DNA from: an uncultured Thermoplasmata archaeon
Lineage (GTDB): Archaea; Thermoplasmatota; DTKX01; GCA-020343715
Length of the DNA: 64,000 bases
Direction of reading: 5' to 3'
Assembly: GCA_965369625.1 (NCBI GenBank)
Contig: CBDUQW010000002.1
Location: forward strand, 27,708-91,707
This document shows, one piece after another, positions 178-35,862 of the stretch. Under the pieces are notes generated by a model. It saw nothing but the letters and a program-made list of their open reading frames with translations. It was not told the DNA's origin and did not search any database. Numbering within the stretch: position 1 is the stretch's first letter; each line of letters opens with the position of its first letter. Both the position numbers and the translations under genes were made by a program.

Positions 178-265
178 GGTTGGCTAATGCTATCAAAAGA
201 AGTCTGGGGGCTCCCCTCAGGAGCCCTTGAACAACAGTCCGGGAGCACTTGGAGGGTGTGAGGTC

Positions 266-3200
266 ATGAAGAAAGGTAATATCGAAGGAAGGGAACCAAA
301 GAGCGGACGTAGGATCAAAGGGGTCGGTGCACTGACCGTGTCCGTGGTCCTGTTCATGCTCGTATCGCTGATCATGCCCACCGTGAGCGCAGCTCCCGCC
401 CCGGACCTGTTCGTCGACCCCTTGGACCTGTCCGTGGGACCAGAGCCCCTCGTGGAGGGCGTTCCTGCCACGGTGAGCTTCGTGGTCAACAACATGGGTG
501 ACCAGAGCGCCTTCAGCCTGAACATCTCCCTGTACGACCACGGCGAGCTGGTGGCCGACAAGTGGTTCAGGGATTGCATCATCGGTGAGAACATCACCGA
601 CACCCTCCCCTGGACGCCGCAGGCGGCCGGCACCTACGACCTCACCATCAGGGCCTGGTACGGTCCAGGCTCGACCAAGACCGACCAGAACTGGGATGAC
701 AACAACGGTAGCGTCAGCGTGACCGTGAGGTCGCGACCCGACGTGTACCTGACCTCCTCCGACATCACCCACACCGCCCCCGACCCCGACTACGTGGTCG
801 ACGGGGACCTGGTCACCGTCCGCGCCGTGCTGCACAACGCCGGGACCGCCGACGTGACCTCGTGCAACGTGACCCTCTGGGAGGCCGCCGTGGACGGCGG
901 GGGCGAACGTGTCGCCACGCTGGCCGCCATCACCATCCCAGGCTCCGGCCAGGTAACTGTCAATCTGCCCTGGAACACCACCGGCTTCTCGGGCAAGCGG
1001 AACCTGTACGTCCGCGTCACCGACGTCCTGCCCACCGAGACCGCCTTCGCGAACAACGTGGCGACCATAAGCATAAAGGTCCACACCGTGGAGGACAAGG
1101 TCTTCGACGGCGTGGACAGGGAGATCATCTCGTCCTTCAAGATACAGTTCTTCATCACCGTCAAGGGTGGCGGCACCCTGACGATAACCGACGTCGGCAA
1201 CGCCACGGTCTACCAGGACTACGGCGAGCAGTACGAGATCGAGGTGATGGACACTGGCAAGCTGATAATCGATGGTGGCATCCTCAACGCCGCCATGAAC
1301 TACACCGTTTCGCTTACCGACTCCGCCGAGCTCCATCTGCTCAACGGCGCCGAGTCCAACGTGAGGGTGGTGGCCTCTGGCAATGCCAAGGTCTTCATAC
1401 ATGACAGCACCCTGGACGCGCCCACCATCGAGATGACCGGGGGCGCCCTAACTGCCTCCGGTTCGAACATCACCGCTGGCCGTCTGGACCTCTTCTACAC
1501 CACCGTCGTGGTCGACTCCTCGAGCATCAGGACCGGGGAGACCATACGCATCGTTGGCCAGACCGCCTCGTTCAACGACACCGAGATCAAGGTGGCCCGA
1601 GAGTTCGAGGACATCGTTCTGGCCATCGAGGCCTTCCCGCAGCTGGAGGGCCACGACCCGGACACCAGGGAGGTCGAGATACTGCCCCCGGCACTGGTGG
1701 TCACGGACGGTGCCATGGTGGACCTGCGGAACGTCTCCGTCGATTCCACCATCTACATCACCTCCGAGGAAAGCAGCTACTGGACCTCCAACAGGCTCGA
1801 CGCCGAGGGGCGCACCTCCGTCGTGAACGTGCACAGGTACGTGGTCGTCCAGGTGAGGGACTGGTTCGGCGAGGTCGTGCCGAACGCCGAGGTCCAGGTG
1901 ATGGACTACTTCGACGACATCGTGATCATCAGCGGCACCACCAACCTCACCGGCGACGTGACGCTGGCGGTCAAGACCGACTACGTGACGGCCGCCCAGA
2001 AGCCCTACGTGGGGAACCTCAGGGTGAGGGCCTCCGCCTACGGCAGGAACTCCGACGACGTCTGGTTCGCCCACAGCAAGTACCCCGACATGGACTTCGA
2101 GAGCAACACGTTGTTCGTGGACATCGAGATGCCCCCCAACCCGCACCCGGACATGGGCCTGAGGTACAGGAGGTACGTGACCCCCCACCTGATAAAGAAT
2201 GACGAGTCGAGCATGGACAAGAACATCATCGTCGACAACACCGTGCTCACGCTGTTGAACACCACCTTCACCCTGGAGCAGGAGTTCCCGTACCAGTGGT
2301 ACATACTGATCACCGGCGAGCACGGCACCCTCAGGCTGCAGAACGCCACCATCATGAGCCAGTATCCCTTCAAGATCTACGTGGAGGAGAGCGGGACCCT
2401 CGTCATGAGCGAAGGGTCGGCGCTCCTCGACGTCCGGATCATCGCCAAGGACGATTCCAGCCTCGAGATAGTCGACGGCATCATAATGGGAGGCATCTTC
2501 ACCGAGTGCCAGTCCATCGATATCGCCGGCGCCTCCCGCCTCACGCTCTCCCATACCCACATGGAGGCCACCACTGTCAGCATCACCGGTGGCTATGTCC
2601 ACGAGCAGGCGGACATGTTGATCAAGGCCAACGACGTGATGCTGAGCGGCGTGGAGCTCTCCGCCGACTACGAGATCAGCGACACCGTGGGCGCGGAGGA
2701 CCTTTGGGACATCACCCTCTACTTCGGATGGAGCATCCTCAACGACGAGGAGTACCTCTTGAACATCAGCGCAGGCTTCTTCGACTACTTCGCCGCCGGG
2801 TCCGAGATCACCATCGAGACCTCGAGGCTCAACATCATCGATTCCTTCGTCTACGCGATAGACACCAACATCAAGGTGCGTCGCTCAAGCACGCCCAAGC
2901 AGACGTCCATCGAGGGCAGCTGGATCGGCGGCATCAACCTGACGGTCATCTCCGACGACATGGTGGCCATCGACTCCCACTTCAACAGGGTGCTGGACAA
3001 CTTCTCCGGCACCGACAAGATCCGCCTCGAGAGCGTGGAGGTCCCAGGGATCGTCTGCGAGGGCGAGGCCCTGGTGGAGCGGTACTGGTCCCTGACCGTC
3101 TACGCCTACGACGGCGCCGGGTCCGTGAGGCCCTGGGCCCTCCTGGAGGTGTTCTCCACCGAGACCAACGACAGGGTCTTCCCGCCCACGGGCGAGGAGG

Positions 3201-5425
3201 ACCTGGAATCCAGCCGTACCAATTCAGCAGGCATGATAACCGTCTCGCTCCTGGCCAACGTGACCGACAGCACCGGGGACTACTTCGTGGGCTCCTACTA
3301 CTTCTGGCTGGTCTACGATGGTCCCAACTTCGAGAACGACCCCGCCTACACCGAGACGAAGCAGGTGAACCTCAAGGGGGACAGCGTCTTCGAGGCCCGT
3401 TGGCCCATCGTGATAGCGCCCCTCGAGAAGGATATCATCTACTGCCTCTACACCGCAGAGGAGGCAGGCCCCTCCGTGGACATCAAGATGTACAACCACA
3501 CCTTCTGGTCGGAGGAGGAGGCCGAGCAGTTCCTCAACGAGAGCGCCTACATGTCCTACGACAGGATCAAGTTCAACAGGACCATCATCCGGAACACCAC
3601 CATCAGGATGACCTTCTACGCCTCGGCCAGGGTCAACGAGGTCTGGGAACCCCTCACGGAAGGCACGGTGAAGGTCTACGTGCTGACCACTCCCGACCCC
3701 AACCCCAACCGGCCCGCGACGGACTACAACGGCACGGCCCTCATCTACACCGTAGAGCCCCACCAGTTGGTGGACGGCATGGGGAACATCACGATATCCA
3801 TTCCCAACGGTGTCAGCGTGTACCAGCTGTACATCGCCATCGCTGGTGGTGACTACGACCCGATCTTCGAGCCCATCACCGAGCGGTTCATGGACCTGGA
3901 GGTCAAGCACCCCCAGACCATCCAGATCACCAGCGCCAAGATACAGGAGTATCCCATCCACGTGGGCGATGCGATATCCATCATGGGCTCGGTCAGGTAC
4001 ATCTACACCGACGAGCCCGTCCTCTACGCCGAGATCGAGGTCACCGGGACCTACGTCACCCCCGGACGCGGCCTGACCAACATGGACGGGGGTTTCACCA
4101 TCTCCATGCAGGCGCCGCTGCAGCCCCAGGAGAACGTCTCCCTCGAGATCATCGCGGTGGACCCCATCTCCGACGAGCAGTCCGCAATGATCATCAACTA
4201 CGCCGTCGAACCTCCCTACGAGGCCGAGGATGTGGTAGAATTCCCGTGGGGATGGGTCATCGTCGGTATCATCGCCGCCGTGATCGCCTTCTCCATCGTA
4301 CTGGGCGCGGTCATGATGTACCGCAAGCACTACGGCGAGGTGGTGGAGTGCGGCGAGTGCGGCGCCTTCATACCATCCAGCGCCACCTCGTGCCCCAAGT
4401 GCGGCATCGAGTTCGAGACTGACCTGGCCCGCTGCTCGGAGTGCGAGGCCTGGATACCTGCGAAATCATCCTCTTGCCCCGTGTGTGGAACCCCCTTCAC
4501 CATCCAGTCCCTGGAGGAGGCGGTGGCCATGGAGGAGGCGGAGGAGGACGTGGCCCCCATCGACCAGCTGACCACCTCCACCGCCCAGCTGGCCCCCCTC
4601 ACCCTTGAGGGCTCCACCCAGGCCTCCAAGTGGGGTGACAAGGTGGAGAAGCGCCGCCGCCGCATCAAGAAGCGGGTCAAGAAGCGCCTCACCGTCACCG
4701 ATGCCGAGGGCAACCTGGAGGAGGAGGCCCCCGAGGAGGCGAAGGACCTGTTCGTTGGCGACGAGGGTGATGAGGCGACCCGCCTGCCCGGTCTGGGCGT
4801 GGACGAGTCCATGCTCTCCGACGACGAGCTCTCCAGGCTCCTGCCCACAGAGGACATGCTCAAGGAACTCATGCTGACCAGCGACCAGCCTCCCAGCGAG
4901 GCCGCCCTCGAGGGCGAGGCCGACGAACTGGCCGACGAACTGGCCGACGAGGAGGCTCCCGAGGCGGACGAGGCAGAGGCCGATGCCGATGCTGATGCCG
5001 ATGCCGACGCGATGGAGGCGGGAATGGACCTGGAGGAGATCCCCTCAGAAGAGGGCGAGGTCCCCGAGCCTGACGCCGAGGACCTGGAGGAGATCCCGCC
5101 GCCCGAGGGGGCCGACGACGACCTGGACCTTCCCGAGGACGAGGAGACCATGCCCGGCCTTGGCCAGGTCCCCGACGAGGACAAGCCCGAGGAGGAGATG
5201 TACGAGGGACGCGAGCTGCTCAGCGAGCTGGGCCTGGTCGCCGAGGTGCCCAGCACCGCCGACCGGGATGAGGGAGGGGAACCCGCCGAGGAGGAGTCCC
5301 TCAAGGACCTGCTCACCGAGGAGGGGTCCAAGGAGACCCCCAAGCTCTGCCCCAACTGCGGTGGCAACTGGATCCTCTACAAGGACGGCGAGTACACCTG
5401 TCGCATCTGCGGCGAGAAGTGGTGA
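266..5425 (+). CDS. Giant (about 1719 aa) type I membrane surface protein. It has an N-terminal signal peptide, two CARDB-like domains, beta-helix-like repeats and many N-x-S/T sequons. A single TM segment (WGWVIVGIIAAVIAFSIVLGAVMMY, about nt 4246-4320) is followed by a ~370-aa cytoplasmic tail with three Cys4 zinc ribbons and an acidic low-complexity tract.
   Basis: Long ORF 227..5425 with non-shadow composition. The likely start is ATG 266 (MKKGNIEGREPKSGRRIKGVGALTVSVVLFMLVSLIMPTVSAAPAP, a signal peptide). CARDB-like motifs (VSFVVNNMGDQSA..., VRAVLHNAGTAD...). Zinc ribbons CGECG...CPKCG, CSECE...CPVCG and CPNCG...CRICG. Acidic tract EEAPEADEAEADADADADA. Confidence 0.8.
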   Translation: MKKGNIEGREPKSGRRIKGVGALTVSVVLFMLVSLIMPTVSAAPAPDLFVDPLDLSVGPEPLVEGVPATVSFVVNNMGDQSAFSLNISLYDHGELVADKWFRDCIIGENITDTLPWTPQAAGTYDLTIRAWYGPGSTKTDQNWDDNNGSVSVTVRSRPDVYLTSSDITHTAPDPDYVVDGDLVTVRAVLHNAGTADVTSCNVTLWEAAVDGGGERVATLAAITIPGSGQVTVNLPWNTTGFSGKRNLYVRVTDVLPTETAFANNVATISIKVHTVEDKVFDGVDREIISSFKIQFFITVKGGGTLTITDVGNATVYQDYGEQYEIEVMDTGKLIIDGGILNAAMNYTVSLTDSAELHLLNGAESNVRVVASGNAKVFIHDSTLDAPTIEMTGGALTASGSNITAGRLDLFYTTVVVDSSSIRTGETIRIVGQTASFNDTEIKVAREFEDIVLAIEAFPQLEGHDPDTREVEILPPALVVTDGAMVDLRNVSVDSTIYITSEESSYWTSNRLDAEGRTSVVNVHRYVVVQVRDWFGEVVPNAEVQVMDYFDDIVIISGTTNLTGDVTLAVKTDYVTAAQKPYVGNLRVRASAYGRNSDDVWFAHSKYPDMDFESNTLFVDIEMPPNPHPDMGLRYRRYVTPHLIKNDESSMDKNIIVDNTVLTLLNTTFTLEQEFPYQWYILITGEHGTLRLQNATIMSQYPFKIYVEESGTLVMSEGSALLDVRIIAKDDSSLEIVDGIIMGGIFTECQSIDIAGASRLTLSHTHMEATTVSITGGYVHEQADMLIKANDVMLSGVELSADYEISDTVGAEDLWDITLYFGWSILNDEEYLLNISAGFFDYFAAGSEITIETSRLNIIDSFVYAIDTNIKVRRSSTPKQTSIEGSWIGGINLTVISDDMVAIDSHFNRVLDNFSGTDKIRLESVEVPGIVCEGEALVERYWSLTVYAYDGAGSVRPWALLEVFSTETNDRVFPPTGEEDLESSRTNSAGMITVSLLANVTDSTGDYFVGSYYFWLVYDGPNFENDPAYTETKQVNLKGDSVFEARWPIVIAPLEKDIIYCLYTAEEAGPSVDIKMYNHTFWSEEEAEQFLNESAYMSYDRIKFNRTIIRNTTIRMTFYASARVNEVWEPLTEGTVKVYVLTTPDPNPNRPATDYNGTALIYTVEPHQLVDGMGNITISIPNGVSVYQLYIAIAGGDYDPIFEPITERFMDLEVKHPQTIQITSAKIQEYPIHVGDAISIMGSVRYIYTDEPVLYAEIEVTGTYVTPGRGLTNMDGGFTISMQAPLQPQENVSLEIIAVDPISDEQSAMIINYAVEPPYEAEDVVEFPWGWVIVGIIAAVIAFSIVLGAVMMYRKHYGEVVECGECGAFIPSSATSCPKCGIEFETDLARCSECEAWIPAKSSSCPVCGTPFTIQSLEEAVAMEEAEEDVAPIDQLTTSTAQLAPLTLEGSTQASKWGDKVEKRRRRIKKRVKKRLTVTDAEGNLEEEAPEEAKDLFVGDEGDEATRLPGLGVDESMLSDDELSRLLPTEDMLKELMLTSDQPPSEAALEGEADELADELADEEAPEADEAEADADADADADAMEAGMDLEEIPSEEGEVPEPDAEDLEEIPPPEGADDDLDLPEDEETMPGLGQVPDEDKPEEEMYEGRELLSELGLVAEVPSTADRDEGGEPAEEESLKDLLTEEGSKETPKLCPNCGGNWILYKDGEYTCRICGEKW
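4979..5008 (+). repeat. Hexanucleotide microsatellite (GCCGAT/GCTGAT)x5 encoding (Ala-Asp)n inside the cytoplasmic tail. An adjacent 12-nt direct repeat (gccgacgaactg x2, at 4921-4950) encodes ADELADEL.
   Basis: Direct reading of gccgatgccgatgctgatgccgatgccgac. Confidence 0.8.
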
Positions 5426-6007: not shown

Positions 6008-6910
6008 CTACATCTCGATGTCGGTCTTGATCAAGGCGTAGCCCAGGTCGAAGAACTGCACGTTCTTGATGTCCATGGTGATGAAATCGCCGGAGATGGA
6101 CAGGACGAAGTCGGTGCCCGGCACCAGGCCGGCGTCGATCATGGAGTTGTTGAAGTACCGGGACCACGCGATGGTGTACTCGGTGATCATGGTCAGGTTG
6201 AGCCACTCAGGGGGGTTGAACCGGTGGGATGCGGCGGTGTAGGTCACCAGCTGGGTCTGGAACAGGATGGTGCTGGTGCCCTGTATGGAGGTCTCGATGC
6301 CCGATATTGTGATCTGGACGAAGGTGACCTTGACGACGGGCCCGAACTTCTCCACGGTGAACTGGGGTCCTATGCGCACGATCTCGCCGGCGCCCTGGTT
6401 GAGGATGAGGGCGCCGTTCTCGTAGGCGATCTCCTGGTTGACGTAGTACTGGTTGTTGGAGGTGTACTTCATCCCGCCGGTGGCGGTGATGTTGACCTCC
6501 CCCGACTGGTTCTTGACGTTGCAATAGTACTCCAGCTCGTCGTTGCGGAAGTGGTTGATGGAGAATGTGCCGGACGAGTCGGTGCCGAACATGGCGTAGC
6601 CCTCGGTGCCCAGGGACACAGGGTTGGCCACGCTGAAGGCGGTGTCGCCCTGCAGGATCTGGTTGTCGATGGTGGCCTTGATGTTGCCGAAGTCGGCGGA
6701 GACCTTGTGTATCTGGTTGGCCTCCCTCTTCTCCATCCAGACGGGCATCCAGACCGAGGTGACCATGGTCACCAGCAGGATCACGATGAGGATGGACAGC
6801 ATGATGGCGACCACGCCGGCGGCGGCCTCGTCCTCTTCCCGGAGGTGGCATATCCTCCGTCTGAGGCGTCCTCCGCCGTGTCCAGCAGCCTGTCCCATCG
6901 ACCTGGTCAT
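6008..6910 (-). CDS. Archaeal type IV pilin-like protein (class III signal peptide / Pilin_N-like N-terminus), 300 aa. It is a paralog of the N-terminal 300 aa of the next gene.
   Basis: N-terminus ...EDEAAAGVVAIMLSILIVILLVTMVTSVW has a charged region followed by a hydrophobic helix, typical of archaeal prepilins. Realistic composition, versus Arg/His-rich antisense ORFs on the other strand. It aligns with 6938..8536 (KVSADFGNIKATIDNQILQGDTAF vs KVVNSQFDGMASSIDKQILNGDTKF). Confidence 0.65.
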   Translation of the reverse strand: MTRSMGQAAGHGGGRLRRRICHLREEDEAAAGVVAIMLSILIVILLVTMVTSVWMPVWMEKREANQIHKVSADFGNIKATIDNQILQGDTAFSVANPVSLGTEGYAMFGTDSSGTFSINHFRNDELEYYCNVKNQSGEVNITATGGMKYTSNNQYYVNQEIAYENGALILNQGAGEIVRIGPQFTVEKFGPVVKVTFVQITISGIETSIQGTSTILFQTQLVTYTAASHRFNPPEWLNLTMITEYTIAWSRYFNNSMIDAGLVPGTDFVLSISGDFITMDIKNVQFFDLGYALIKTDIEM

Positions 6911-6937: not shown

Positions 6938-8536
6938 CTATGGATGCAACATTTGATAATATCGGGCGATGTCCGCGTCGGACAGCGCCTTGTCGAATAT
7001 GATGAGCTCGTCCACCTCGCCCTCGAAGTGTCTCCTGTAGATGCCGGAGTGGTACTGGGCGCCCACCGTCAGTCCCTGGGCGACGATGTTGATGTCCCCG
7101 GCGAGCGCGGTGGTGTTCTCGAGGGTGCCGTTGACGTAGATCTTGAGGGCGCCCTCGGCCGTGCTGAAGACGCCTGTGACATGGTACCATATGTTGGGCC
7201 CGGGCACCGTTGAGGACCACACCCAGTCCCGTCTCACGTCCGTGCGGACCGAGAACTCGAAGCCATCGTTGGTGTGACTCGTGCCTACGGTGTTCCCGTT
7301 GTGCTGGAGGGACCACTGGTTCTCGCCCTTGGCCGCGATGGTCGCCCAAGTTGTCCCGTTCCACGGGTTCACGTCCCACCGGACCCAGCACATGACGGTG
7401 ACGCCGTCCTGGACGTTGTACTCGGGTATCTCGGGGATGCTCATGCGCGACCCGGTGCCGTTGAAGGTGTAGCCGCCGCTGTGCACGCCGGCGGTGAAGC
7501 AGCCGCTCCCCACCACGGTGCCGTGGTTGTGGTAGAAGCTGGAATCTGCCGCCAGGGGTCCCGTCCCGTCGTTGAAGTGCCAGAGGCCCACCACGTCCTG
7601 GAGGCCGGGACCGAGGGTGGAACCGCCTGCATTGTCCTGGATCTGGACGTTGACCAGTGCGTAGCCCATCTGGAGGGAGTTGACGTTCCTGATGGCAAGG
7701 TGGATGTCGTTGCCGCTCACGGTCATGATGTAGTCGACGCCTGGGGTGAAGCCCTCCTGGATGAGGGTGTTCTCGTAGTACCTCTGCCAGGCCACGGGGA
7801 ACTCCGTCACCATGCTGATGTTCATCCACTCCGGGGCCGCGAAGCGGAATTCGGCGGTGGTGTAGGTGACCAGCTGGGACTGGACGATGAGTGTGCCCAT
7901 CCCGGTGACCTCCGCCTCCACACCGGACACGGTGATCAGCACGTACGACATGTGGACCACGGGGCCGTGCTTCTCGATGATGAACTGGGGACGGGCCCGC
8001 ACCACCTGGCCCCCGCCCTGTTTGAGGACGATGGCGCCGTTCTGGTAGGCCAGGGTCTGGTCGACGTAGAGGGCGTTGGAGGAGGTGTACTTCATGCCCC
8101 CGGTGCAGGTGATGTTGACCTCGCCCGACTCGTTGCGGAGGTTCGTGTAGAACTCCAGGTCGCCGTCGCGGAAGGAGTTGATGGAGAAGGTGCCCACGGA
8201 GTCGGCGGCGAAGACGGAGGAGCCCTGGACCCCCAGGGTGATGGGGCTGCCGATCAGGAACTTGGTGTCGCCGTTGAGGATCTGCTTGTCGATGGAGGAC
8301 GCCATCCCGTCGAACTGGGAGTTGACCACCTTCATGTGGTCGCTCTCGGCGGTCTCCATCCACTCGGGGATCCACGTGGTGGTCACCATGGTGATGAGGA
8401 GGATCATTATCATGAGGCCCAGCATGATGGTGACGACCCCGGCGGACGCGTCCTCGTCATGCCTGAGCCTCCCCATCCTCCGCTTGGTGGACCAGGTCCG
8501 GTCCCCTGTCGGGCTGTCCCCCATCCCTTCTTCCAT
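6938..8536 (-). CDS. Type IV pilin-like protein (532 aa) with a C-terminal LamG/concanavalin-A-like lectin domain. Candidate pilus-associated adhesin.
   Basis: N-terminus DEDASAGVVTIMLGLMIMILLITMVTTTW (Pilin_N-like). C-terminal about 220 aa contain LamG_3 hallmarks (LWHFNDGTG...HGTVVGS...FNGTGSRMSIP...YHVTGVF...LKIYVNGT...GEVDELIIFDKALSDADI). Confidence 0.7.
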   Translation of the reverse strand: MEEGMGDSPTGDRTWSTKRRMGRLRHDEDASAGVVTIMLGLMIMILLITMVTTTWIPEWMETAESDHMKVVNSQFDGMASSIDKQILNGDTKFLIGSPITLGVQGSSVFAADSVGTFSINSFRDGDLEFYTNLRNESGEVNITCTGGMKYTSSNALYVDQTLAYQNGAIVLKQGGGQVVRARPQFIIEKHGPVVHMSYVLITVSGVEAEVTGMGTLIVQSQLVTYTTAEFRFAAPEWMNISMVTEFPVAWQRYYENTLIQEGFTPGVDYIMTVSGNDIHLAIRNVNSLQMGYALVNVQIQDNAGGSTLGPGLQDVVGLWHFNDGTGPLAADSSFYHNHGTVVGSGCFTAGVHSGGYTFNGTGSRMSIPEIPEYNVQDGVTVMCWVRWDVNPWNGTTWATIAAKGENQWSLQHNGNTVGTSHTNDGFEFSVRTDVRRDWVWSSTVPGPNIWYHVTGVFSTAEGALKIYVNGTLENTTALAGDINIVAQGLTVGAQYHSGIYRRHFEGEVDELIIFDKALSDADIARYYQMLHP

Positions 8537-8563: not shown

Positions 8564-11500
8564 CTAGGTGATCTCCCTCTCCAATGCTGCCAGCGGGAAC
8601 GCCGCCGTCGGTGTGATGGACAGGCCAGAGACCTGCCCCCTCGATTGTATGTCCCCTGTCATGTTGATGCCGAGTGTGAAGTTGCCAGCGCTTCCCGCAT
8701 TGGGAAGGATTATCACCAGCACGTTGTAGGCGATACGCTCCTTGACCTCGAACAGGGGCGACCTGATGAACTCCGCCGAGCCGAAGGAATCGAACCACTC
8801 GTCATCGATGTAGACGTCCTGGTTCGGTCCGGCCGCCAGGTCCCAGGCGCTGTTGTTCGTCCTGTCCCAGTAGAGGCCGATGCGGATCCTCGTCCAGTCG
8901 GCGGGGGGGTTGCCCGAGCTGTTGTAGGCCGCGAAGATCAGGCTGTTCACGTCGGCGTTCTCTCCCTCTGCCCAGAAGGTGAGCTTCATCCAGACGTAGG
9001 GCGTGGACTCCGAGGGGGCTGGCGGGCTCAGGTCCTCCATGTTGACCTTGACGGTGCCGCGGGTGCGGATGGGCACCGTGCCCGAGCTGGCGACCATGGG
9101 GGGGTTCCTGGGCAGATCGAGGCACAGGTTCGGATAGGCCGAAGCCAGGTTGGGCAAGGCTGTGGTGGTACCGATGCCACCCGCGTTGATGCTGCAACCC
9201 AGTGTCCATCCCGCTGTGCCCAGGTTCAGCGAGAACACGACCACGATGTTGAAGTCGGTGCCTGGCGTGACCCACCTCAGGGGAGCGGGTGTGAAGGTTA
9301 TCTGGTTAGCCACGAAGGAGCCCGCGTCCTCGGCATCCAGCTCGATGTCGTCGGGTCCCAGCTTTCTGTCGGTGTCGTTGTTCTGGTCCCAGTAGATACG
9401 CACGGTGACCAGGTTGCCCGCCACCGTGCCCAGCTTGTTGACCCTTATGGAGTTGATGAGCACATCCTGTCCCTCGGCGTTCAAGGTGATCTTGAACACG
9501 GGGACGTTCTGTGACGAGTCGACCAGGGGGTCGGGTATGAGGCCCTCTCCGTGGACGTAGAGCTGTCCGTTGACGGTCCTCCAGTAGGACCTGGACGGGA
9601 TGTCGCTTCCTCCGTAGCCCACAGGGGTGATCGGCAGGGTCGTGATCTGCCCGATCACCTCCGTCTGGGTCGCCAGCTCTATGCTGGTACGTATGGTCTT
9701 GCCCTCTGTCCCGTGGGCCAGGTAGGCGTACGAGTCGACCCGGACGTAACCGTAGAAGTTGGTGTCCATGGGCACCGTCCACATGGGCACGCCGGGGATG
9801 CCGTTGTCGAACAGGGCATGACCTGTGGCGTCGAAGGTGATGGTCTGGTCGTACGCCAGGGTCCCCGAGGATGAGGAGGATATCAGGATGCGGATGCCCG
9901 TGACCTCGTCCCAGGCGATGGTGCCTGCCAGGGTCACGTTGATGGAATGGAACTCGATGGGCTCGCCGTAGCACTTGTAGAGCCACCTGCGCTGGTAGGC
10001 CGTTCCGCCAGCCCTCGTGGGAAGCGTGGTGGTCCCCTCCATGTCGATGGTAACGTGGCCCGAGGAGGCCAGCGTCTTGATGGTGGGGGATGAGGGCAGC
10101 GGCACGCCGCCGGGGGTCTGGGGGTTGATGCCGTCGCCCGAGACCTCGGTGATGGCGAAGGTGTCCGCCGCAGTGTCCATCTGAACACCGACCGTGTCCC
10201 CGTTGTTGCCACGGATGTTGAAGTAGATGTACACATGGCGGTACGGCCACGCCTCGTCTATCCTCCAGCCTCCGGGCGGTGCGTTGACCTCGAGGCGTCG
10301 TGTGATGGCGTTGAAGGCCAGGGGGCCAGAGTCCAGGAAAGTACCGCCCGAGTCCTTGATGTAGCAGTCGACGTCGGTGACGTCGATGTTGCCGAGGAGG
10401 GTCAGGTTGAGCTGGTGGATGAAGACGGTCTCGCCCGTCGCCTGGTAGAGCAGCTCGATCATCTTGACGTCGTCGGTATGGGTCAGGATGCGGGTGGGAT
10501 GCCGGTTGTAGCCCCAGACCTTGAACACGCCCTTGATGGTCAGCACCGAGCTGTCGATGGGGAAGCTGCCGATGGGAAGGATCCTGATGGGGGTGGACAC
10601 ACCGACGGCGGTGATGCTGGTCTGCGACTCGATGCGGACGCCGATGGAGAAACCCTCGGTCCCGCCCGAGATGGAGACCAGGATCCAGACGTACGTGGGC
10701 TCGTCCTCGATGCAGGTGAAGAGGGGAGCCCCGATGAAGTCACGGTAGCCCCCGATGAAGTTGCCGCCCGAACCGGGCAGCTGGTAGTCGAGGACCGTGT
10801 TAAGGACCCCGTCGCGGTCCTTGTCCCAGTAGGCCCTCAGGACCACCTTGTTGTCGGCGATGGTCCCCAGTTTGCGGACGCGTATGCCGTTGACGTTGAT
10901 GGACTCGCCGTTGGACAGGAACTCCAGCTTGAGGAAGAGCTTGTTGGCATCGCCCGACTTGAGTATGGTGGGTGGGGGGACCTCGTCGGTGCCCGTCAAG
11001 CGGAGGGAGCTGAACGAGGTCGACACCGTCACCCTCACGGTGGCGGTGGCGGAGCGTCCAGTGTCGTCGGTGGCGGTGACGGTGAAGGAGTAGTCGCCGG
11101 GCAGCACGGTGGTGGCGATCTTGAGCAGGCCGGTTATGTAGACGCCGTCGCCCCTGCTGTCGACCATGGCGGTGCTGCCGGCACCGAAGGCGGTGACGGT
11201 GAAGGTGCCGTCGCCGTTGTCGGTGGAGGTGATGGTCGCGGTCACGCTGCCCGTGGTGGGCAGGTCGCCGTCGATGTCCTTGCAGACGGCGTAGAGGCGC
11301 CAGGTGGTGTAGTCGTTGTTGGGAAGCACGTCCACACCAGGCAGGGTGGAGTCGGCCCATGCGTAGGCTATGATGGGATCGTGGTCGCCGCCGGAGCTGA
11401 CGCCCCGCTGGACAACGGTGTAGAACAGAAGGCTGTTCGATGTCACGTCGACGATCTTGACGTCCAGCTTGGCCTGGGTGGAGATAGTGCCCAGGAAGTC

Positions 11501-11836
11501 CATGGTCCAGATGTCACCCGGTTCCATGACCTTCTTGCCGGCCGGCAGGCCATCCGATATCTCGAACCTTGTCGGTGTGTCATCTATGCTCACAAGGATG
11601 TAGGTCTCGCCTTCCTTGAGGGGCTCTCCTCCGGTGTGCTGCAGGTGCAGCGTGCCATCCACGGCCGAGGTCCGCTCCAGCATCGGAACGATGTCCGCCT
11701 GGATGGTGGCCTCGGGGCCAGGGATGCTGTACACAAAGGATAGGACCACCGAGAACAGGGACACGGTGATCACAAGGATGAGGAGATTCCCAACGACCTC
11801 GGAGACTGCGTCGTCTCCCGATCTTTTCCACAACAT
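8564..11836 (-). CDS. Large (1090 aa) secreted adhesin-like protein with an archaeal class III (pilin-like) signal peptide. Ig-like/Big-domain-rich, with Thr/Ser/Gly/Val-rich composition.
   Basis: N-terminus MLWKRSGDDAVSEVVGNLLILVITVSLFSVVLSFVY closely matches the archaeal Pilin_N consensus (D/E-R/D-A-V-S-E-V-I/V-G + hydrophobic helix). Long beta-rich repetitive body. A TATA-like GTATAAATAC sits at 11888-11897 upstream. Confidence 0.7.
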   Translation of the reverse strand: MLWKRSGDDAVSEVVGNLLILVITVSLFSVVLSFVYSIPGPEATIQADIVPMLERTSAVDGTLHLQHTGGEPLKEGETYILVSIDDTPTRFEISDGLPAGKKVMEPGDIWTMDFLGTISTQAKLDVKIVDVTSNSLLFYTVVQRGVSSGGDHDPIIAYAWADSTLPGVDVLPNNDYTTWRLYAVCKDIDGDLPTTGSVTATITSTDNGDGTFTVTAFGAGSTAMVDSRGDGVYITGLLKIATTVLPGDYSFTVTATDDTGRSATATVRVTVSTSFSSLRLTGTDEVPPPTILKSGDANKLFLKLEFLSNGESINVNGIRVRKLGTIADNKVVLRAYWDKDRDGVLNTVLDYQLPGSGGNFIGGYRDFIGAPLFTCIEDEPTYVWILVSISGGTEGFSIGVRIESQTSITAVGVSTPIRILPIGSFPIDSSVLTIKGVFKVWGYNRHPTRILTHTDDVKMIELLYQATGETVFIHQLNLTLLGNIDVTDVDCYIKDSGGTFLDSGPLAFNAITRRLEVNAPPGGWRIDEAWPYRHVYIYFNIRGNNGDTVGVQMDTAADTFAITEVSGDGINPQTPGGVPLPSSPTIKTLASSGHVTIDMEGTTTLPTRAGGTAYQRRWLYKCYGEPIEFHSINVTLAGTIAWDEVTGIRILISSSSSGTLAYDQTITFDATGHALFDNGIPGVPMWTVPMDTNFYGYVRVDSYAYLAHGTEGKTIRTSIELATQTEVIGQITTLPITPVGYGGSDIPSRSYWRTVNGQLYVHGEGLIPDPLVDSSQNVPVFKITLNAEGQDVLINSIRVNKLGTVAGNLVTVRIYWDQNNDTDRKLGPDDIELDAEDAGSFVANQITFTPAPLRWVTPGTDFNIVVVFSLNLGTAGWTLGCSINAGGIGTTTALPNLASAYPNLCLDLPRNPPMVASSGTVPIRTRGTVKVNMEDLSPPAPSESTPYVWMKLTFWAEGENADVNSLIFAAYNSSGNPPADWTRIRIGLYWDRTNNSAWDLAAGPNQDVYIDDEWFDSFGSAEFIRSPLFEVKERIAYNVLVIILPNAGSAGNFTLGINMTGDIQSRGQVSGLSITPTAAFPLAALEREIT

Positions 11837-12039
11837 GGTAGTCCCTCTTCTAACCTGGGTTCAGGCAGCCCTGACGTACCCCAGGTCCGTATAAATACTT
11901 TTTCGCATACTTCTCACGCGCGCGAAAAAAAGATATCGGCACTTTTGTTATCCTAGCCAAATAGATTCTGGAAAATCACATATTCTGATAAAAGCCCCTA
12001 AACCCATAACGCCTCCCATATCGCACTCTGGGTGGTAGG

Positions 12040-12070: not shown

Positions 12071-12451
12071 TCAGTACGGTCCCCTGAGAACCTCTCTGTT
12101 GATGAACACGCCCGTCGGGGTGACGGCGAGGATGTTCTTGCCCACGCCGGCGACGTCGCCGTTGACGTCCCGGGCGACGGACTTGAGCTCGTTCGCGATA
12201 CGCCTCATCGCGGTGTCGTCGGTGGAGAGGGCCGAGATGTCCACGAGGATCATGTTACCATCGTAGACCTCTTCGATGACGGGGCCAAGGTCCTCGAAGG
12301 TGGTGACCTCCGCGACCCGCAGCTCCATGCCTCCGGCGCCGGATTCCAGCTCCAGGCCCTCGATGTCGATGTCCCCCAGGTCGATGAACTTCTCGCTTTC
12401 GGGAACAGGCCGTGGATCCGTCTTGAGCCGCTTGAGTAGACCCTTCTTCAT
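12071..12451 (-). CDS. sepF: Cell-division protein SepF (DUF552 family, FtsZ-interacting).
   Basis: 126 aa. C-terminal core ...NMILVDISALSTDD..RRIANEL...GKNILAVTPTGVFINRE matches the SepF fold signature (iLlNL...rriDfl.G...g.ifLltP..V). Confidence 0.7.
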   Translation of the reverse strand: MKKGLLKRLKTDPRPVPESEKFIDLGDIDIEGLELESGAGGMELRVAEVTTFEDLGPVIEEVYDGNMILVDISALSTDDTAMRRIANELKSVARDVNGDVAGVGKNILAVTPTGVFINREVLRGPY

Positions 12452-12604: not shown

Positions 12605-14140
12605 GTGAGGTTCGAACTTCGTGGCGCCATTCTCTTCAGCGCCGACCTGGGACCCGTCGCAGAGCACCTCGAGGGCTACGTCAGGGAGATCGAGGCGGGT
12701 CCCCTCCTAAAGGGCGTCCCAGAGGGCGAGGAGGGCCCCCGCGTCGAGGGGGCCGAGCCCAAGGGTCAGGAGCTGGCGCTGGTCATCGTCTCCGGTCGTT
12801 ACGTGCGGGCCCACGAGGCGCTGCTGAGGCTCCGCAAGGAGCTGTCCACCCGCATGGGCAAGGAGCACCGCATCGGGGCCCGCGGTGTGCGCATCGACCG
12901 CTACACCATCTCCTTCTCGGTGTCCAAGGAGCCCGCCCGGCCCGTCAAAGTGCCCTTCGCCACCTCCCTCGAGTTCCAGGGCGAGACCGCCGTTCTGACC
13001 CTCACCGACGTCTCCGAGGACTTCCTCAGCCGCAACTACGTCGACCGGCTGGTGGCCCTGGTCAGGGAGAAGGTGGACGCCCAGGGGTACGAGGGCAAGG
13101 AGGAGTTCTGGGAGCTCATCTGGACCTCGCCGCCCAGGGAGATGCCCTACCAGGAGGACCCCACCGAGGACATGGCGGGGCGGGGATGGGTCCAGCAGGG
13201 CCCGGGGAAGGGCCGGTGGTTCTTCCGGCCCCAGGCCGCCGCCGTGATCCGGACGATGGAGCGCATCGCCCTGGAGAAGGTGCTCCACCCCCTCGGCTTC
13301 CAGGAGGTCATCTCGTCCTCGCTGGTCCCCTTCGAGGTCTGGCTGAAGACGGGCCACCTCAAGGGCGTGGCCAACGAGATCTACTACTTCTCCGAGCCCG
13401 CCACCCGCAACGAGGAGGCATGGGAGGAGCTGCGCGACCTGGTGAAGGTAACCCGGGAGGTGCCCCGTGAGAAGCTGGTCGACCTCCTCGACGCGCCCAG
13501 GGCGGGCATGACCTACGCCCAGTGCCCCAACATATACTGGTCCTTCCAGAAGCGCACCCTGGCCGACGAGGACCTGCCCATCATGGTATACGACCGCACC
13601 GCCAACTCCTACCGGTACGAGTCCGGGGGGCGTCACGGCATCGAGCGGGTGGACGAGTTCCACCGCATCGAGCCCGTCTACATCGGCACCATGGACCACC
13701 TGGTGGAGCTCCGCGAGGCCCTCATCGACCTCTACAAGCGCGTGTTCAACGAGATCCTCGAGCTGGAATGGCGCATGGCCTGGGTGTCCCCCTTCTACCT
13801 CCAGCAGGCGGGGATGGCCGGGGGAGAGGAGGAGGAGGCCCCCGTCCCCGACGAGCGACGGGAGGGCACCATCGACTTCGAGGCCTACCTGCCCTACCGG
13901 GGCACCCGCGAGGAGAGCGAATGGCTGGAGTTCCAGAACCTGTCCATCCTGGGCGACATCTACACCACCGCCTTCAACATCAAGGCCCAGCGGCACGAGC
14001 TGGTCTCGGGATGCTCCGGCATAGGGCTGGAGCGGTGGACCGCCGTCTTCCTGGCCCAGAAGGGCCTCGACCCCGCCGGATGGCCCGATGGGTTCAAGGC
14101 CTTCCTGCCCGACCTCCCCAAGGGCTTCACCTTCCACTGA
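12605..14140 (+). CDS. serS: Seryl-tRNA synthetase, methanogen-type (atypical class II SerRS).
   Basis: GTG start preceded by GGAGGA. Class II motif 2 SYRYESGGRHGIERVDEFHRIE and motif 3 GCSGIGLERW. Zn-ligand candidates (AQCPN about aa 303, ERVDEF about aa 350, SGCSG about aa 468) sit at positions matching Cys306/Glu355/Cys461 of the Methanosarcina barkeri atypical SerRS. Length 511 aa and a non-canonical N-terminal domain. Confidence 0.75.
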   Translation: MRFELRGAILFSADLGPVAEHLEGYVREIEAGPLLKGVPEGEEGPRVEGAEPKGQELALVIVSGRYVRAHEALLRLRKELSTRMGKEHRIGARGVRIDRYTISFSVSKEPARPVKVPFATSLEFQGETAVLTLTDVSEDFLSRNYVDRLVALVREKVDAQGYEGKEEFWELIWTSPPREMPYQEDPTEDMAGRGWVQQGPGKGRWFFRPQAAAVIRTMERIALEKVLHPLGFQEVISSSLVPFEVWLKTGHLKGVANEIYYFSEPATRNEEAWEELRDLVKVTREVPREKLVDLLDAPRAGMTYAQCPNIYWSFQKRTLADEDLPIMVYDRTANSYRYESGGRHGIERVDEFHRIEPVYIGTMDHLVELREALIDLYKRVFNEILELEWRMAWVSPFYLQQAGMAGGEEEEAPVPDERREGTIDFEAYLPYRGTREESEWLEFQNLSILGDIYTTAFNIKAQRHELVSGCSGIGLERWTAVFLAQKGLDPAGWPDGFKAFLPDLPKGFTFH

Positions 14141-14245: not shown

Positions 14246-15235
14246 GTGGCCAAGAAATCAGCCCGCGCTGAGGCGAGGAAGGTAAAGGACCGCTGGAAGT
14301 CCAAGGTCTGGTACAACCTGTACGCCCCCGAGATATTCGGGGCGAGCCAGATCGGCGAGACCCTGGCGGACACCCCCGAGAAGCTGAACGGTCGCGTCAC
14401 CCAGATCACCCTTCAGGACATAACCGGTGACTTCTCGCAGATGCACGTCAAGCTGAACTTCCAGATCAACCGCGTGGTGGGACTGGACGCCCACACCGCC
14501 TTCGTCGGCCACGACCTGACCTCCGATTACATCCGCCGCCTGACGCGCAGGAAGCACTCCAAGATGGACGGCATCTACGATGTCACCACCCTCGACGGCT
14601 ACCGCGTGCGCATCAAGCCCATGGCCATCACCGAGCGGCGCATCAAGTCCTCCCAGCAGGAAGCCATCCGTGCCCAGATGATGCAGGTGGTCAACGACAG
14701 CGCCAGTCGCGCAACCCTCCCCGAGGTCATCAGGGCGATGATCTCCGGAGAGATGTCCAAGTCCATCTTCCGCAAGTGTAAGCCCATCTACCCCATCAAG
14801 CGGGTGGAGATCCGTCGCAGCCAGGTGATCGGTCGCGAGTTCGTCCCCGACGGCCCCGTCCGCGAGGGTGGCGACGGCTACGTGCTTGGAGGTCCCGAAC
14901 CAGAACCCGAGCCGGAAGGCGAGGAGGCTCCCGCCGAGGGCGAGGTACCCGTCGAGGCTCCCGCCGAGGAGACCCCTGCAGAGGAGGCTCCCGCGGAGGT
15001 TCCCGCCCCCGCCGAGTCGGAGGAGGAGTCCGAGGTGGACCCCGAGACGGTGGCCGCCATCATAGCCTCCTTCGGGGACATCCCGGGCATCGGCCCGTCC
15101 AAGGCCCAGGCCCTCTTCGACAGCGGTTACACCTCCGTCGAGGAGATCAAGGCCCTCTCCGCGGAGGACCTGGCCAAGGTCGAGGGCATCTCCGAGGCCC
15201 TGGCCAAGAGCGTCCACGAGGCCCTCAACGAGTAG
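14246..15235 (+). CDS. rps3ae: 30S ribosomal protein S3Ae (eS1) fused to a C-terminal acidic Pro/Glu/Ala-rich linker and a helix-hairpin-helix (HhH) domain.
   Basis: N-terminus MAKKSARAEARKVKDRWKSKVWYNLYAPEIFG... is the canonical S3Ae start. It is about 210 aa, followed by EPEPEPEGEEAPAEGEVPVEAPAEETPAEEAPAEVPAPAESEEESE and then IASFGDIPGIGPSKAQALFDSGYTSVEEIKALSAEDLAKVEGISEALAK (two GIG-type HhH motifs). Confidence 0.8.
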   Translation: MAKKSARAEARKVKDRWKSKVWYNLYAPEIFGASQIGETLADTPEKLNGRVTQITLQDITGDFSQMHVKLNFQINRVVGLDAHTAFVGHDLTSDYIRRLTRRKHSKMDGIYDVTTLDGYRVRIKPMAITERRIKSSQQEAIRAQMMQVVNDSASRATLPEVIRAMISGEMSKSIFRKCKPIYPIKRVEIRRSQVIGREFVPDGPVREGGDGYVLGGPEPEPEPEGEEAPAEGEVPVEAPAEETPAEEAPAEVPAPAESEEESEVDPETVAAIIASFGDIPGIGPSKAQALFDSGYTSVEEIKALSAEDLAKVEGISEALAKSVHEALNE

Positions 15236-16762: not shown

Positions 16763-19700
16763 TCATCGATGCTTCAGCATGTGCCCTATCAGGAAACCCA
16801 ACACGAGCAGTGCAAGGGCGGTCAAGAGCAGTATGATGATGACCTTGGCGTCCTCCGTGGGTCCCCAGACGGGCTGTGCCTCAGGTTTCCCCCTCACCAA
16901 TAGGTCCGTCTCCGAACGGGCGGAGGCGGTCCCGTCCGTAACGATGGCCGAGATCCGGTGCGCGCCCGCAGCAAGGTCGTTGACCGTGAACTCCACATCA
17001 CGGTCCGTCTCGATGGTGAGCAGGATGCCCGAGATGTTCGAGATGAGGGTGAGAGTCACCATCTCGCCGTAAATGAAGTCGGGGTCCTCGACGGAGATCC
17101 TGAAGGTCACCGGCGCCCCCTCGTCGAAGGCGCTACCGTCGCGAGGTGCCAGGAAAATCGGGGGCAGGGGTGGCTCCCCAATCTTCGTTACATGTACGGT
17201 GATGTCCTCCGATGCCGAACCCCCACGGCCGTCCGTTCCAGAAAGGGTGACATGGTGGGTGCCCAGGTCCCCCGCATCCGCTGAGAGCCTCAACGAACCG
17301 TTCCCAAGGAGGCTTGCGCCGTCCCAGTCCGACTCGATGGATAGATGGACCCGGTCCCCGTCCTTGTCAATGGTGAGGACATCGAGGACCAGCTCCTCTC
17401 CCACCTGCATCTCGATCTCTGCCGGGAGGTGGTAATCGCCGACGGCCAGTAGGTCCGGGTTGTGGTTCCTATCGATGACCCGTATGGGTAGGAGTCCCAC
17501 CGTGGTCTCGTACCCGTCCGATACCCTGAACTCGATCTGGTGGGGTTCCTCGTAACTTGGGTAGTACAGACGTATCATCAGGTCCGTGATGTACAATACC
17601 GCAGGGTCCCCGGAGCTCAGTTTGAGGTCGTGCTTGGCGTCGTCCACGTCGTAGATATAGGGACCCAGGTCCACTTCCTTCAACATCCTCACCGATATGT
17701 TGAACTGTGGGATCTCCATGATGCTCGGCGGTGAATTCAGGTGCGTGAACTTGAAGGGTTCCGACCATGGACCGCCACGTTTGGGTGGACGCGAATAGAG
17801 CGTCGCCACCCGCCAGTAGAGCTCACCCTTGCGGGTCCCCGAGACATTGGCGTAGGGATCTGGAACATCCGAGGTCAACGTGACGAGGTCGAAGTCAGGG
17901 TCGAGGGCCAGCTGGAACCTGTAGCCCCATACATCCCCGTTGGTGGTCGACCCGTGGACCGGCGACCATGTGAAAAGGGGAACGTCCTTGCTCTCGTGCC
18001 CGTTCCACGGGGTCTGCAGGGCGGTCATGCTCATGGGGACGTACCGGTGGGCGCGTCCCTTGGATGTCATCCTTCCCGTCCCCTCCCCGCCCGTTGGTCC
18101 CAGGGCGGCGGACCTCCAGCAGAACCCACCATCGCCTCCGGTGGCGCCCAGGTGATTGTTGGCGTGGATGACCGGCTCAATGACCACCAGGCGCATCGAG
18201 GCATCTCCTCCGTCTCCAACCCCCTGCTCGATGACACCGGTCCCGCCACCGTGGCTGATCCAGAGGCCATCCTCGATGATACATCCACCACCACCGCCGG
18301 AGTAGGAGCCGCCGCCCCCACCTCCCCTCCATTCGTTCCTAGCGGCCATCATGTGAGAGCGTCCAGCCCTTCCTCCGGGGCCACCTCCACCAGCGTGGAC
18401 GTTGACATCCACGAGGAAGAACGTTCCCTGGGTCGATGTAACCTCCAGTCGGGCATCTCCTCCCGAGGCCACGTCACCCTCCACCGTGCCACCAGACCCC
18501 CCGTTCACGGTGAGCGGGTCTGATGCGGACGGGATCCATCCTGCCCCTCCACCTCCGGAGTGCCCACCCCCTCCAGCTCCACTGGGACCTGTGGATGTCC
18601 CTCCATCACCTGCCCTGCCCCCTTGGCCCGCGGTCACGTTCAGGATGCCATCGGAAAGATGGACGGAATGCGACACGATGGTCGCGGTGGCGTCGCCCCC
18701 TGAACCCACGTGACCTTCGACCGTTCCTCCGTTTGCTCCCCCGTTCCGAGATTCATGACTGCCACCTCCGCCTCCCGAGTAACCTCCACCACCGGCACCG
18801 CCGAGACCCGCCGTGTCACCACCGTCGCCAGCATCACCACCGTCACCCGCCTGGATGGCCACCTCCGAGGCCTGCATGGAAACCTCGACCGCAAGGATGT
18901 ACAGGGTCGAATCGCCGCCGACGCCAACCCATCCCGAGACCTGTCCACCTGGACCCGCGGGATGCTCGGGGTCCGAGGCCCCCGTGCCTCCCGAGTAACC
19001 GCCACCTCCGGCGCCCAGGCCGGCGTTGGACTTCACGGAGCCACCGTCGCCCGCATCACCTCCGTCACCGCCCACGACATGGACCACAGAGCCCTGGACA
19101 TCGACCTTGTTCGTGGTCATACCGATGAAGGCGTCCCCTCCGGAACCAACCCTGTCCGAGACAGACCCACCCTGGGTATAACCCCCGCCGAGGACTTGGG
19201 CGGTGCCCTCGGAGGTCACGCCGTCGGGGGCGTCCCCTCCCACTCCCGCCTGGACGAGGACGGTGGAGTTCAATATGGCGAGGGAGGCGAAGTCCAGTGT
19301 GGTCTTCAGGACGAAGCGGGCATCGCCCCCGGCGTACCTACGACCGTCCAGGTCGTCGAGCGTCACCGGGATATCCGGGCCCATTCCATCGCCCGCCGAC
19401 AGGACCACGGACGCGTTCTCGATCAATATCTCCCGGCTGGCCCTCACGTTCATCTCCACGCTCACTCCCTGACCGTCCCAACGGTTCGAGCCGTCAGGTC
19501 CCTCGATGATGATCGAGGATCCATCGGTGACGCGCATGTGCCTGCACGTCCCGTTGATGCCGATGACCTCCCCTGCCGTCCAAGGAGAGATGACCAGGTC
19601 GCCCCCTGTGAGATCGACGGTGGCCAGTCCTTCCATGGTCATTTGGGATACCGACAGCGTCGTCCCCTCGGGTATCACCAGGTGACCAAAGGTCGTTATC

Positions 19701-19891
19701 TTGACGGAGCTCCACGACTCCGTCCCCGAGACGACGTACTCCTGGTTCACGTAGAGGCTGGCATCGGTGGTGGGAGGGCGATCGGCACCAAGGTCGGAGG
19801 GCGTCACGGGTGGGTCTATTAAGGGTACGACGGTCACCATGAGCATTGTGAGGGCCACGACGAGCGGGACCAAGGGGCACGGACGTTTCAT
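16763..19891 (-). CDS. Paralog B' of the giant Gly/Asp-repeat surface protein family (1042 aa). Domain order: signal peptide, beta-helix-like N-domain, about 370 aa of Gly-rich repeats, Fn3-like domain, Ig/cadherin-like domains, then a C-terminal TM anchor (VIIILLLTALALLVLGFLIGHMLKHR).
   Basis: ORF composition. N-terminal signal MKRPCPLVPLVVALTMLMVTVVPL. Repeats of the type AGDGGDAGDGG...GGAGGGGYSGGGGG...VGSGGDA. FTWSPVHGST...ELYWRVATLY is Fn3-like. The start ATG overlaps the stop of the upstream paralog (ATGA at 19888-19891). Confidence 0.8.
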   Translation of the reverse strand: MKRPCPLVPLVVALTMLMVTVVPLIDPPVTPSDLGADRPPTTDASLYVNQEYVVSGTESWSSVKITTFGHLVIPEGTTLSVSQMTMEGLATVDLTGGDLVISPWTAGEVIGINGTCRHMRVTDGSSIIIEGPDGSNRWDGQGVSVEMNVRASREILIENASVVLSAGDGMGPDIPVTLDDLDGRRYAGGDARFVLKTTLDFASLAILNSTVLVQAGVGGDAPDGVTSEGTAQVLGGGYTQGGSVSDRVGSGGDAFIGMTTNKVDVQGSVVHVVGGDGGDAGDGGSVKSNAGLGAGGGGYSGGTGASDPEHPAGPGGQVSGWVGVGGDSTLYILAVEVSMQASEVAIQAGDGGDAGDGGDTAGLGGAGGGGYSGGGGGSHESRNGGANGGTVEGHVGSGGDATATIVSHSVHLSDGILNVTAGQGGRAGDGGTSTGPSGAGGGGHSGGGGAGWIPSASDPLTVNGGSGGTVEGDVASGGDARLEVTSTQGTFFLVDVNVHAGGGGPGGRAGRSHMMAARNEWRGGGGGGSYSGGGGGCIIEDGLWISHGGGTGVIEQGVGDGGDASMRLVVIEPVIHANNHLGATGGDGGFCWRSAALGPTGGEGTGRMTSKGRAHRYVPMSMTALQTPWNGHESKDVPLFTWSPVHGSTTNGDVWGYRFQLALDPDFDLVTLTSDVPDPYANVSGTRKGELYWRVATLYSRPPKRGGPWSEPFKFTHLNSPPSIMEIPQFNISVRMLKEVDLGPYIYDVDDAKHDLKLSSGDPAVLYITDLMIRLYYPSYEEPHQIEFRVSDGYETTVGLLPIRVIDRNHNPDLLAVGDYHLPAEIEMQVGEELVLDVLTIDKDGDRVHLSIESDWDGASLLGNGSLRLSADAGDLGTHHVTLSGTDGRGGSASEDITVHVTKIGEPPLPPIFLAPRDGSAFDEGAPVTFRISVEDPDFIYGEMVTLTLISNISGILLTIETDRDVEFTVNDLAAGAHRISAIVTDGTASARSETDLLVRGKPEAQPVWGPTEDAKVIIILLLTALALLVLGFLIGHMLKHR

Positions 19892-23046: not shown

Positions 23047-23159
23047 GGGAACTACTAAGGACGCATGCTGATAATAATCCCATCGATGCGTGACACCCGC
23101 GTCGTCCGAGGCCAAGGTCCAGGACCGACGAGGGAAAGGATGGGGTCATAATCCCAGGC

Positions 23160-35672: not shown

Positions 35673-35862
35673 GGAGACCCGACCACCTGGTTCAACCTCA
35701 CTCCTTGCATCCATTCCTGCCTGGCCCATATATACAGTCTTGTACGGTTCTTTATCGTTCCCATACGGGGTATGGGGTCCTGGCACTCGCTCACGTGGTG
35801 CCATGTGCGACCGTACGCCTTAAGGGTTGCGACGTGGTTTTCCTCGGGGCGAACCCAGTTAT

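Follow-up and report, generated by a model that had tools for sequence, protein, structure and literature searches.

A putative modular minor type IV pilin with a C-terminal LamG module in an uncultured Thermoplasmata archaeon

Results

Operon structure and domain architecture

The window, that is the whole 64-kb stretch of Thermoplasmata DNA analysed here, carries on its minus strand an operon of three genes (hereafter g1, g2 and g3) that encode a Pilin_N protein of 1090 aa, a DUF7289 protein of 532 aa with a LamG domain and a DUF7289 protein of 300 aa, respectively. The features are listed below in the direction of transcription, the parts of g2 following the entry for the whole gene.

11890..11895 (-): TTTATA resembling a TATA box, preceded by purine-rich sequence and placed 53 nt ahead of the ATG of g1; putative promoter of the operon, read from the sequence
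8564..11836 (-): g1, first operon gene, 1090 aa, with the N-terminus of an archaeal type IV pilin and, after it, beta-rich domains that take up about 950 aa
6938..8536 (-): g2, middle operon gene, 532-aa modular pilin-like protein (DUF7289 scaffold plus LamG module); stop codon at 6938-6940
8444..8536 (-): g2 residues 1-31, putative class III signal peptide leader, basic/acidic, ending in R-H-D-E-D-A
8273..8443 (-): g2 residues 32-88, pilin alpha1-like N-terminal helix, hydrophobic then amphipathic
7628..8272 (-): g2 residues 89-303, beta-rich globular scaffold domain (DUF7289 core)
7595..7627 (-): g2 residues 304-314, linker of 11 residues between scaffold and LamG, variable and of low confidence
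6941..7594 (-): g2 residues 315-532, LamG / concanavalin-A-like beta-sandwich module
6008..6910 (-): g3, last operon gene, LamG-less paralog of g2, a DUF7289 pilin-like protein of 300 aa

Only 27 nt separate g1 from g2 and g2 from g3, a purine-rich stretch lies ahead of each start, and the GC3 of the g2 ORF is 0.92. No tandem repeats were found in the operon, BLASTP self-comparison of g1 gave no significant internal repeats, and there were no PADLOC, Rfam or tRNA matches. A scan for sigma-70 promoters and terminators stayed at background level, such signals being not applicable to archaea. The 580 nt that separate g3 from the convergent gene lack conservation. The corresponding spacer of the related contig L004, which runs from the g3 ortholog to the CARDB gene, holds, at approximately 12780-12860, a short tandem repeat (units like CACATCGA/CTCGGCA) that is absent from the window.

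A sequence-only reading of this DNA had placed a LamG/concanavalin-A-like lectin domain at the C-terminus of a pilin-like protein. The placement is confirmed by a Pfam scan, in which Laminin_G_3 (PF13385) matched g2 at 69.7 bits against a gathering threshold of 27.6 (E 4e-19, profile positions 2-151 of 151), and by the AF2 model, which shows, from the N-terminus on, a disordered leader, a helix of about 60 residues, a beta domain (residues 94-303), a low-confidence linker (pLDDT below 50 at residues 302-313) and a confident C-terminal beta-sandwich. The same Laminin_G_3 profile is matched by 18 of 18 long family members, with a best E of 2.4e-30. The model thus has the layout of archaeal type IV pilins, with a long alpha-helix at the N-terminus and a beta-rich globular domain after it. 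The scaffold itself is covered by DUF7289 (PF23960), for which the g2 match is marginal (E 1.7e-6, 28.2 bits against a threshold of 27) and confined to profile positions ~71-201 of 238, i.e. to the beta core only; g3 scores E 7.1e-7 and 29.4 bits against the same threshold, and the profile matches all 41 of 41 family members at E <= 1 (best 1.4e-8).

Comparison of the two DUF7289 proteins bears on how g2 came about. Indeed, g3 is 50% identical to g2 residues 23-300 with zero gaps and stops where the g2 linker begins, and its own AF2 model has a helix (residues 26-87) and a beta domain (pTM 0.66). The LamG domain therefore looks grafted via a variable linker onto the C-terminus of a g3-like scaffold. 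In the family alignment, mean pairwise identity is highest in the N-terminal helix (0.63) and lowest in the linker (0.36); the LamG module, with variable loops, is somewhat less conserved than the scaffold (0.52 versus 0.59-0.63).

N-terminal signal region

The archaeal pilin signature Pilin_N (PF07790) was matched by g1 (E 4.5e-13, residues 9-86), the N-terminus of which reads MLWKRSGDDA|VSEVVGNLLIL, and by neither g2 nor g3 in the Pfam search. An hhalign comparison of the g2/g3 family with the g1 family aligned just the 26-residue signal region and was not significant (E 0.17). No bacterial N-methylation or pilin family was among the Pfam and NCBIfam matches, the nearest being GspG for g3 at E 0.06, well below cut-off, and weak Flp1_like matches occur in 18 family members.

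The signal region was then compared over 93 distinct DUF7289 relatives, for which a gapless alignment was anchored on the P-x-W motif downstream. The proposed -1 residue is Ala in 61 and Gly in 31 of them (92/93), positions -2/-3 are E, D or S, positions -5/-6 are R or K, and about 22 hydrophobic residues follow. At this pattern level, with its conserved -1, -2/-3 and -5/-6 positions and its constant hydrophobic stretch, g2 carries the marks of a class III signal peptide, and its leader would be cleaved after Ala31. The lone TM-like segment of g2, and the sole hydrophobic stretch in the protein, spans residues 28-57 (KD up to 2.69); the AF2 model gives a continuous helix at residues 28-88, the first ~25 residues of which are hydrophobic. 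A Gly at +3 and a leader of 31 residues are unusual for archaeal prepilins when set against the FlaFind pattern, which reportedly goes back to Szabo and colleagues in 2007. Altogether, direct support for the pilin-likeness of the g2 scaffold is moderate, and the contextual support described below is good.

The near-invariant Ala or Gly at -1 argues for processing. It thereby speaks against an alternative in which g2 is no pilus subunit at all, being either an uncleaved membrane anchor or part of a bindosome- or pseudopilus-like surface assembly of g1, g2 and g3 without a long filament, which would hold the LamG module and the g1 ectodomain for substrate capture. Such an arrangement is consistent with the size of the g1, g2 and g3 products, all far bigger than typical major pilins, and has a documented counterpart in the class III signal peptides of archaeal substrate-binding surface proteins such as those of the Sulfolobales bindosome (preprint 10.64898/2026.04.22.720090). 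The gene neighbourhoods considered below bear further on this question.

Fold and probable ligand of the LamG module

The module adopts a two-sheet jelly-roll beta-sandwich, and among its fold neighbours some bind sugars and others do not. Carbohydrate binding is proven for the closest single-domain structure and for several more (AbnA Domain4, CBM40, PilC). Equally close are non-lectin members of the fold, namely the N-terminal subdomain of neurotoxin Hc (HCN jelly roll), pappalysin and the pentraxins; the acidic Ca-site motif of the latter is not conserved and aligns to non-acidic residues in the g2 module. There are 9 Trp in its 218 residues, a richness typical of sugar-binding faces that may serve as weak evidence. 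Of the idea that this is an adhesive glycan module on a pilin-like scaffold, the modular pilin-like architecture thus stands, and the mixed neighbours leave glycan binding a plausible property of the module and the reading we prefer.

Ligands other than glycans are also bound by the LamG fold, in the toxin HCN jelly roll, the pentraxins and pappalysin, which gives some weight to a second possibility. The modular pilin architecture would be the same, and the LamG module would not be a lectin; it would instead bind g1, the S-layer, a surface protein of another cell or some other non-glycan ligand, or would cap a minor-pilin complex. We consider this rather unlikely, given the proven carbohydrate-binding modules among the nearest structures and, as a weaker argument, the tryptophan content.

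The concanavalin-A-like superfamily also includes glucanases in its name, and TafC, an archaeal filament subunit, has a C-terminal LamG domain (PMC11821415). The C-terminal domain of g2 might hence be a catalytic glucanase, or g2 might be a TafC-type tip subunit of Tat-dependent donor-strand fimbriae, the latter finding a weak NCBIfam match over the LamG part (E 2.9e-4). However, no glycoside hydrolase family was matched in Pfam, and the TafC match (NF052521) reaches 20.1 bits against a cut-off of 410. The leader does not resemble a Tat signal either, since its arginines precede the acidic D-E-D/E and not a hydrophobic pair, and since its very hydrophobic h-region runs on into the 60-residue helix. 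Moreover, the N-terminal domain of g2 is DUF7289 and not a TafA-like Ig fold. Because of these Pfam and NCBIfam results and the leader sequence, both identities are effectively refuted.

Family and conserved neighbourhood

Full-length homologs of g2 form about 32 clusters in metagenomes (41-95% identity), all with the LamG module, and homologs of g3 form more than 40; their names go no further than 'hypothetical' or, for g3 homologs at JGI, 'pseudopilin PulG'. Scanning genome contigs gave a single 2.1-kb locus, in a 'Methanobacteriota archaeon' MAG. An exhaustive representative search used a profile of 522 positions that included the LamG columns and retrieved ~196,000 LamG-module relatives at E <= 1e-3; giant multi-LamG proteins fill the top 150 of these matches, and P0023 and P0086 are the only pilin-family cluster representatives to appear.

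The operon is kept in two related Thermoplasmata MAG contigs, L002 (g2 69% identical) and L004 (44%), where the Pilin_N gene encodes 1081-1085 aa, the LamG pilin 530-535 aa and the DUF7289 gene 300-306 aa. Shared with both is a neighbourhood of S3Ae, SepRS, SepF, the Pilin_N gene, the LamG pilin, the DUF7289 gene, a convergent CARDB gene of ~1730 aa, two FtsZ genes and SecE/Spt5. In this layout sepF (12071-12451, minus strand, in the window) lies on one side of the pilin operon and its convergent CARDB neighbour, and the ftsZ pair (L002:18625-21086; L004:18580-21071) on the other, followed by secE and spt5; the sepF-to-ftsZ arrangement is found in three genomes whose g2 proteins are 44-100% identical. 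SepF relatives at least 90% identical to that of the window occur in 'Thermoplasmata archaeon' MAGs. The arrangement is lineage-specific, since the homologous trio of Methanosarcina (see below) is located elsewhere. A functional tie of the pilin operon to sepF and ftsZ was also considered and judged unlikely, given the location of the Methanosarcina trio and the operon's own TATA-like element.

Distant homologs and pilus machinery

Neither the 64-kb window nor the 10 kb around the operon in L002 and L004 contains a T2SSE ATPase, a T2SSF platform protein, an A24 peptidase or a small major pilin. That three genomes have neither a major pilin nor assembly genes in the vicinity of the operon would fit an uncleaved anchor or a filament-free surface assembly. 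On the other hand, archaeal pilin genes are often unlinked from the ATPase/TadC genes (Makarova et al. 2016, PMC4858521), and homologous trios lie in or beside canonical type IV pilus loci with small Pilin_N pilins. A g3-family profile retrieves DUF7289 proteins of 285-531 aa that are 22-33% identical, and the Methanosarcina pilus locus (L007/L008) encodes a PilB3-type ATPase (T2SSE with PilB3_N/C), a T2SSF platform protein and a 163-aa Pilin_N pilin, followed directly by a trio of a 336-aa Pilin_N protein, a 340-aa DUF7289 protein and a 471-aa DUF7289 relative. The gene order of this trio is that of the window. The N-terminal 144 aa of g1 are homologous to the 336-aa Pilin_N protein (BLASTP E 8e-9), and g3 aligns with the 340-aa DUF7289 protein at an hhalign probability of 98.7%. 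In L009 and L015, too, a homologous trio has small Pilin_N genes as neighbours. With this association and the -1 residue on the other side, we regard the view that g2 is no pilus subunit as improbable.

Extra domains recur among these distant relatives. In two contigs (L013:408-1988, L014:1254-2834) a Pilin_N protein carries DUF11 (E 6e-20) and vWA (E 1.6e-7) domains, and its gene lies directly upstream of one for a plain 286-aa DUF7289 pilin; it is an archaeal counterpart to PilB, the modular pilin of Streptococcus sanguinis that bears a vWA domain. The Methanosarcina-type DUF7289 relatives of 470-530 aa (L007:10001-11416, which is P0277, and P0262, P0254, P0260 and P0266) have a C-terminal extension of ~200 aa that gave no Pfam match and may be another grafted module.

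Other genes of the window

Surface and adhesion-type proteins are unusually abundant in the window. The conserved convergent neighbour of the pilin operon (227-5425, plus strand) encodes a 1732-aa protein with a signal peptide, CARDB and a second TM near residues 1335-1349. Beyond this TM, on the cytoplasmic side, lie double zinc ribbons and a strongly acidic tail (17% D+E overall); the counterparts of the protein in L002 and L004 have 1724-1745 aa. Four tandem genes at 16763-29478 (minus strand) encode proteins of 1042-1075 aa each, three of them with weak-to-moderate Big_9/Ig-like matches near the C-terminus, and look like an array of paralogs that code for large surface proteins. Beta-helix, Big_13, Glucodextran_B and PKD domains occur in further large proteins of the secreted type, encoded at 46527-49772 and 62315-63880 (both minus strand). 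At 31899-35804 (minus strand), a 1301-aa protein combines NPCBM_assoc and CARDB with C-terminal winged-helix domains (HTH_24, HVO_0163-type HTH, MarR) and may be a membrane-spanning regulator.

Among the remaining genes, an O-phosphoseryl-tRNA synthetase-like gene (12605-14140, plus strand; tRNA_bind_4 at E 4e-39 and a class II core) implies that this Thermoplasmata lineage makes Cys-tRNA by the indirect pathway. It is followed at 14246-15235 (plus strand) by ribosomal protein S3Ae (E 2e-71) fused to a C-terminal HHH_5 domain (E 1.3e-13), a fusion kept in L002 and L004. A small Ras/Rab-like GTPase of 186 aa lies at 37584-38144 (minus strand), with matches to the eukaryote-type Ras family PF00071 (E 4.4e-36) and to Roc (E 2e-28).

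Discussion

Our analysis supports the notion that g2 is a putative minor type IV pilin of modular build, on which an adhesive, most likely glycan-binding, LamG module is displayed, a reading to which we give a probability of about 0.55. Its architecture and the fold of the module, the paralogy that points to grafting, the operon with its conservation, and the association of distant homologs with type IV pilus loci are observed. From there, a course of events can be proposed. [quoted passage not shown] The mature N-terminal helices of the three proteins could then associate and dock into a type IV filament by way of the T4P machinery, where, if bacterial complexes of minor pilins such as PilA-PilB-PilC of S. 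sanguinis are a guide, the trio might act together in priming the filament or at its tip. Adhesion would come from the LamG module on its flexible linker and from the large g1 ectodomain, and the ligand would most likely be a glycan, on a polysaccharide particle or on the glycosylated surface of another cell.

Because a vWA-bearing Pilin_N partner stands beside a plain DUF7289 pilin, and because the Methanosarcina relatives carry extensions of their own, a broader and more doubtful view can also be advanced, tentatively. In archaea generally, the trio of Pilin_N, DUF7289 and DUF7289 proteins would serve as a minor-pilin display platform, with varied adhesion modules grafted onto it in different lineages; LamG on DUF7289 in the window, DUF11 and vWA on Pilin_N in L013, the ~950 aa of beta domains on g1 and the Methanosarcina extension of ~200 aa may be examples. 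In this Thermoplasmata lineage the platform would have lost its coupling to the assembly genes and become fixed in the interval from sepF to the ftsZ pair, perhaps as a constitutive, possibly filament-independent, surface adhesion complex.

If the modular pilin reading is true, the grafting of modules onto type IV pili known in bacteria, where vWA and lectin modules sit on minor pilins, operates in archaea too, and does so on a different, structurally uncharacterised scaffold, DUF7289. This family would gain a testable role as a minor pilin able to carry cargo domains. Moreover, uncultured Thermoplasmata would have a concrete adhesin candidate, attachment to polysaccharide particles or cells being ecologically relevant. 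No new mechanistic question is raised, since bacteria already provide the design principle and TafC has been described as a case of an archaeal filament tipped with LamG.

Comparison with known systems

In the archaea, g2 and g3 resemble by description the euryarchaeal minor pilins of arCOG02911, which are FlaFind-positive, beta-rich, tandem-duplicated and ~250-550 aa long (Makarova et al. 2016, PMC4858521): they form a tandem pair of 300 and 532 aa, their relatives have 285-531 aa, and distant DUF7289 relatives lie in PilB3/PilC-type loci. In the literature searched, no LamG extension is described for minor pilins of this kind, and DUF7289 is not mentioned.

The closest bacterial parallel is PilC of S. 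sanguinis, a modular minor type IV pilin with a concanavalin-A-like lectin module (PMC9934059; PDB 7OA7/7OA8). In contrast to PilC, g2 is archaeal and has a DUF7289 scaffold of ~270 aa without a solved relative, in place of a short bacterial pilin with the IPR012902 N-methylation motif; it has no Ig-like spacer module, and its operon is not linked to assembly genes. Sequence similarity between the two was not detected, PilC being missing from the 24 PDB sequence matches. AbnA Domain4 of Geobacillus stearothermophilus (PDB 5HON; PMC9110388) and the sialic-acid-binding CBM40 differ from the g2 module in being appended to glycoside hydrolases and not to a pilin. PF13385 is among the frequent extra modules of bacterial modular pilins (PMC8179133). 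Modular pilins as defined by Raynaud et al. (2021) have an IPR012902 N-terminus, which g2 lacks, and an extra non-T4P domain, which g2 has, since its LamG module comes after a scaffold that exists alone as g3. In function g2 would resemble a modular pilin, yet it sits outside the bacterial operational definition.

Two archaeal precedents are available. TafC of the haloarchaeal Tat-fimbriae ('tafi') carries a C-terminal laminin-G-like domain and has been proposed as a filament-end adhesin (PMC11821415), although it is exported by Tat, is assembled by donor-strand exchange and has an N-terminal fold different from that of g2. Class III signal proteins with sugar-binding-type domains, for their part, are encoded in archaeal pilus clusters (preprint 10.64898/2026.04.22.720090).
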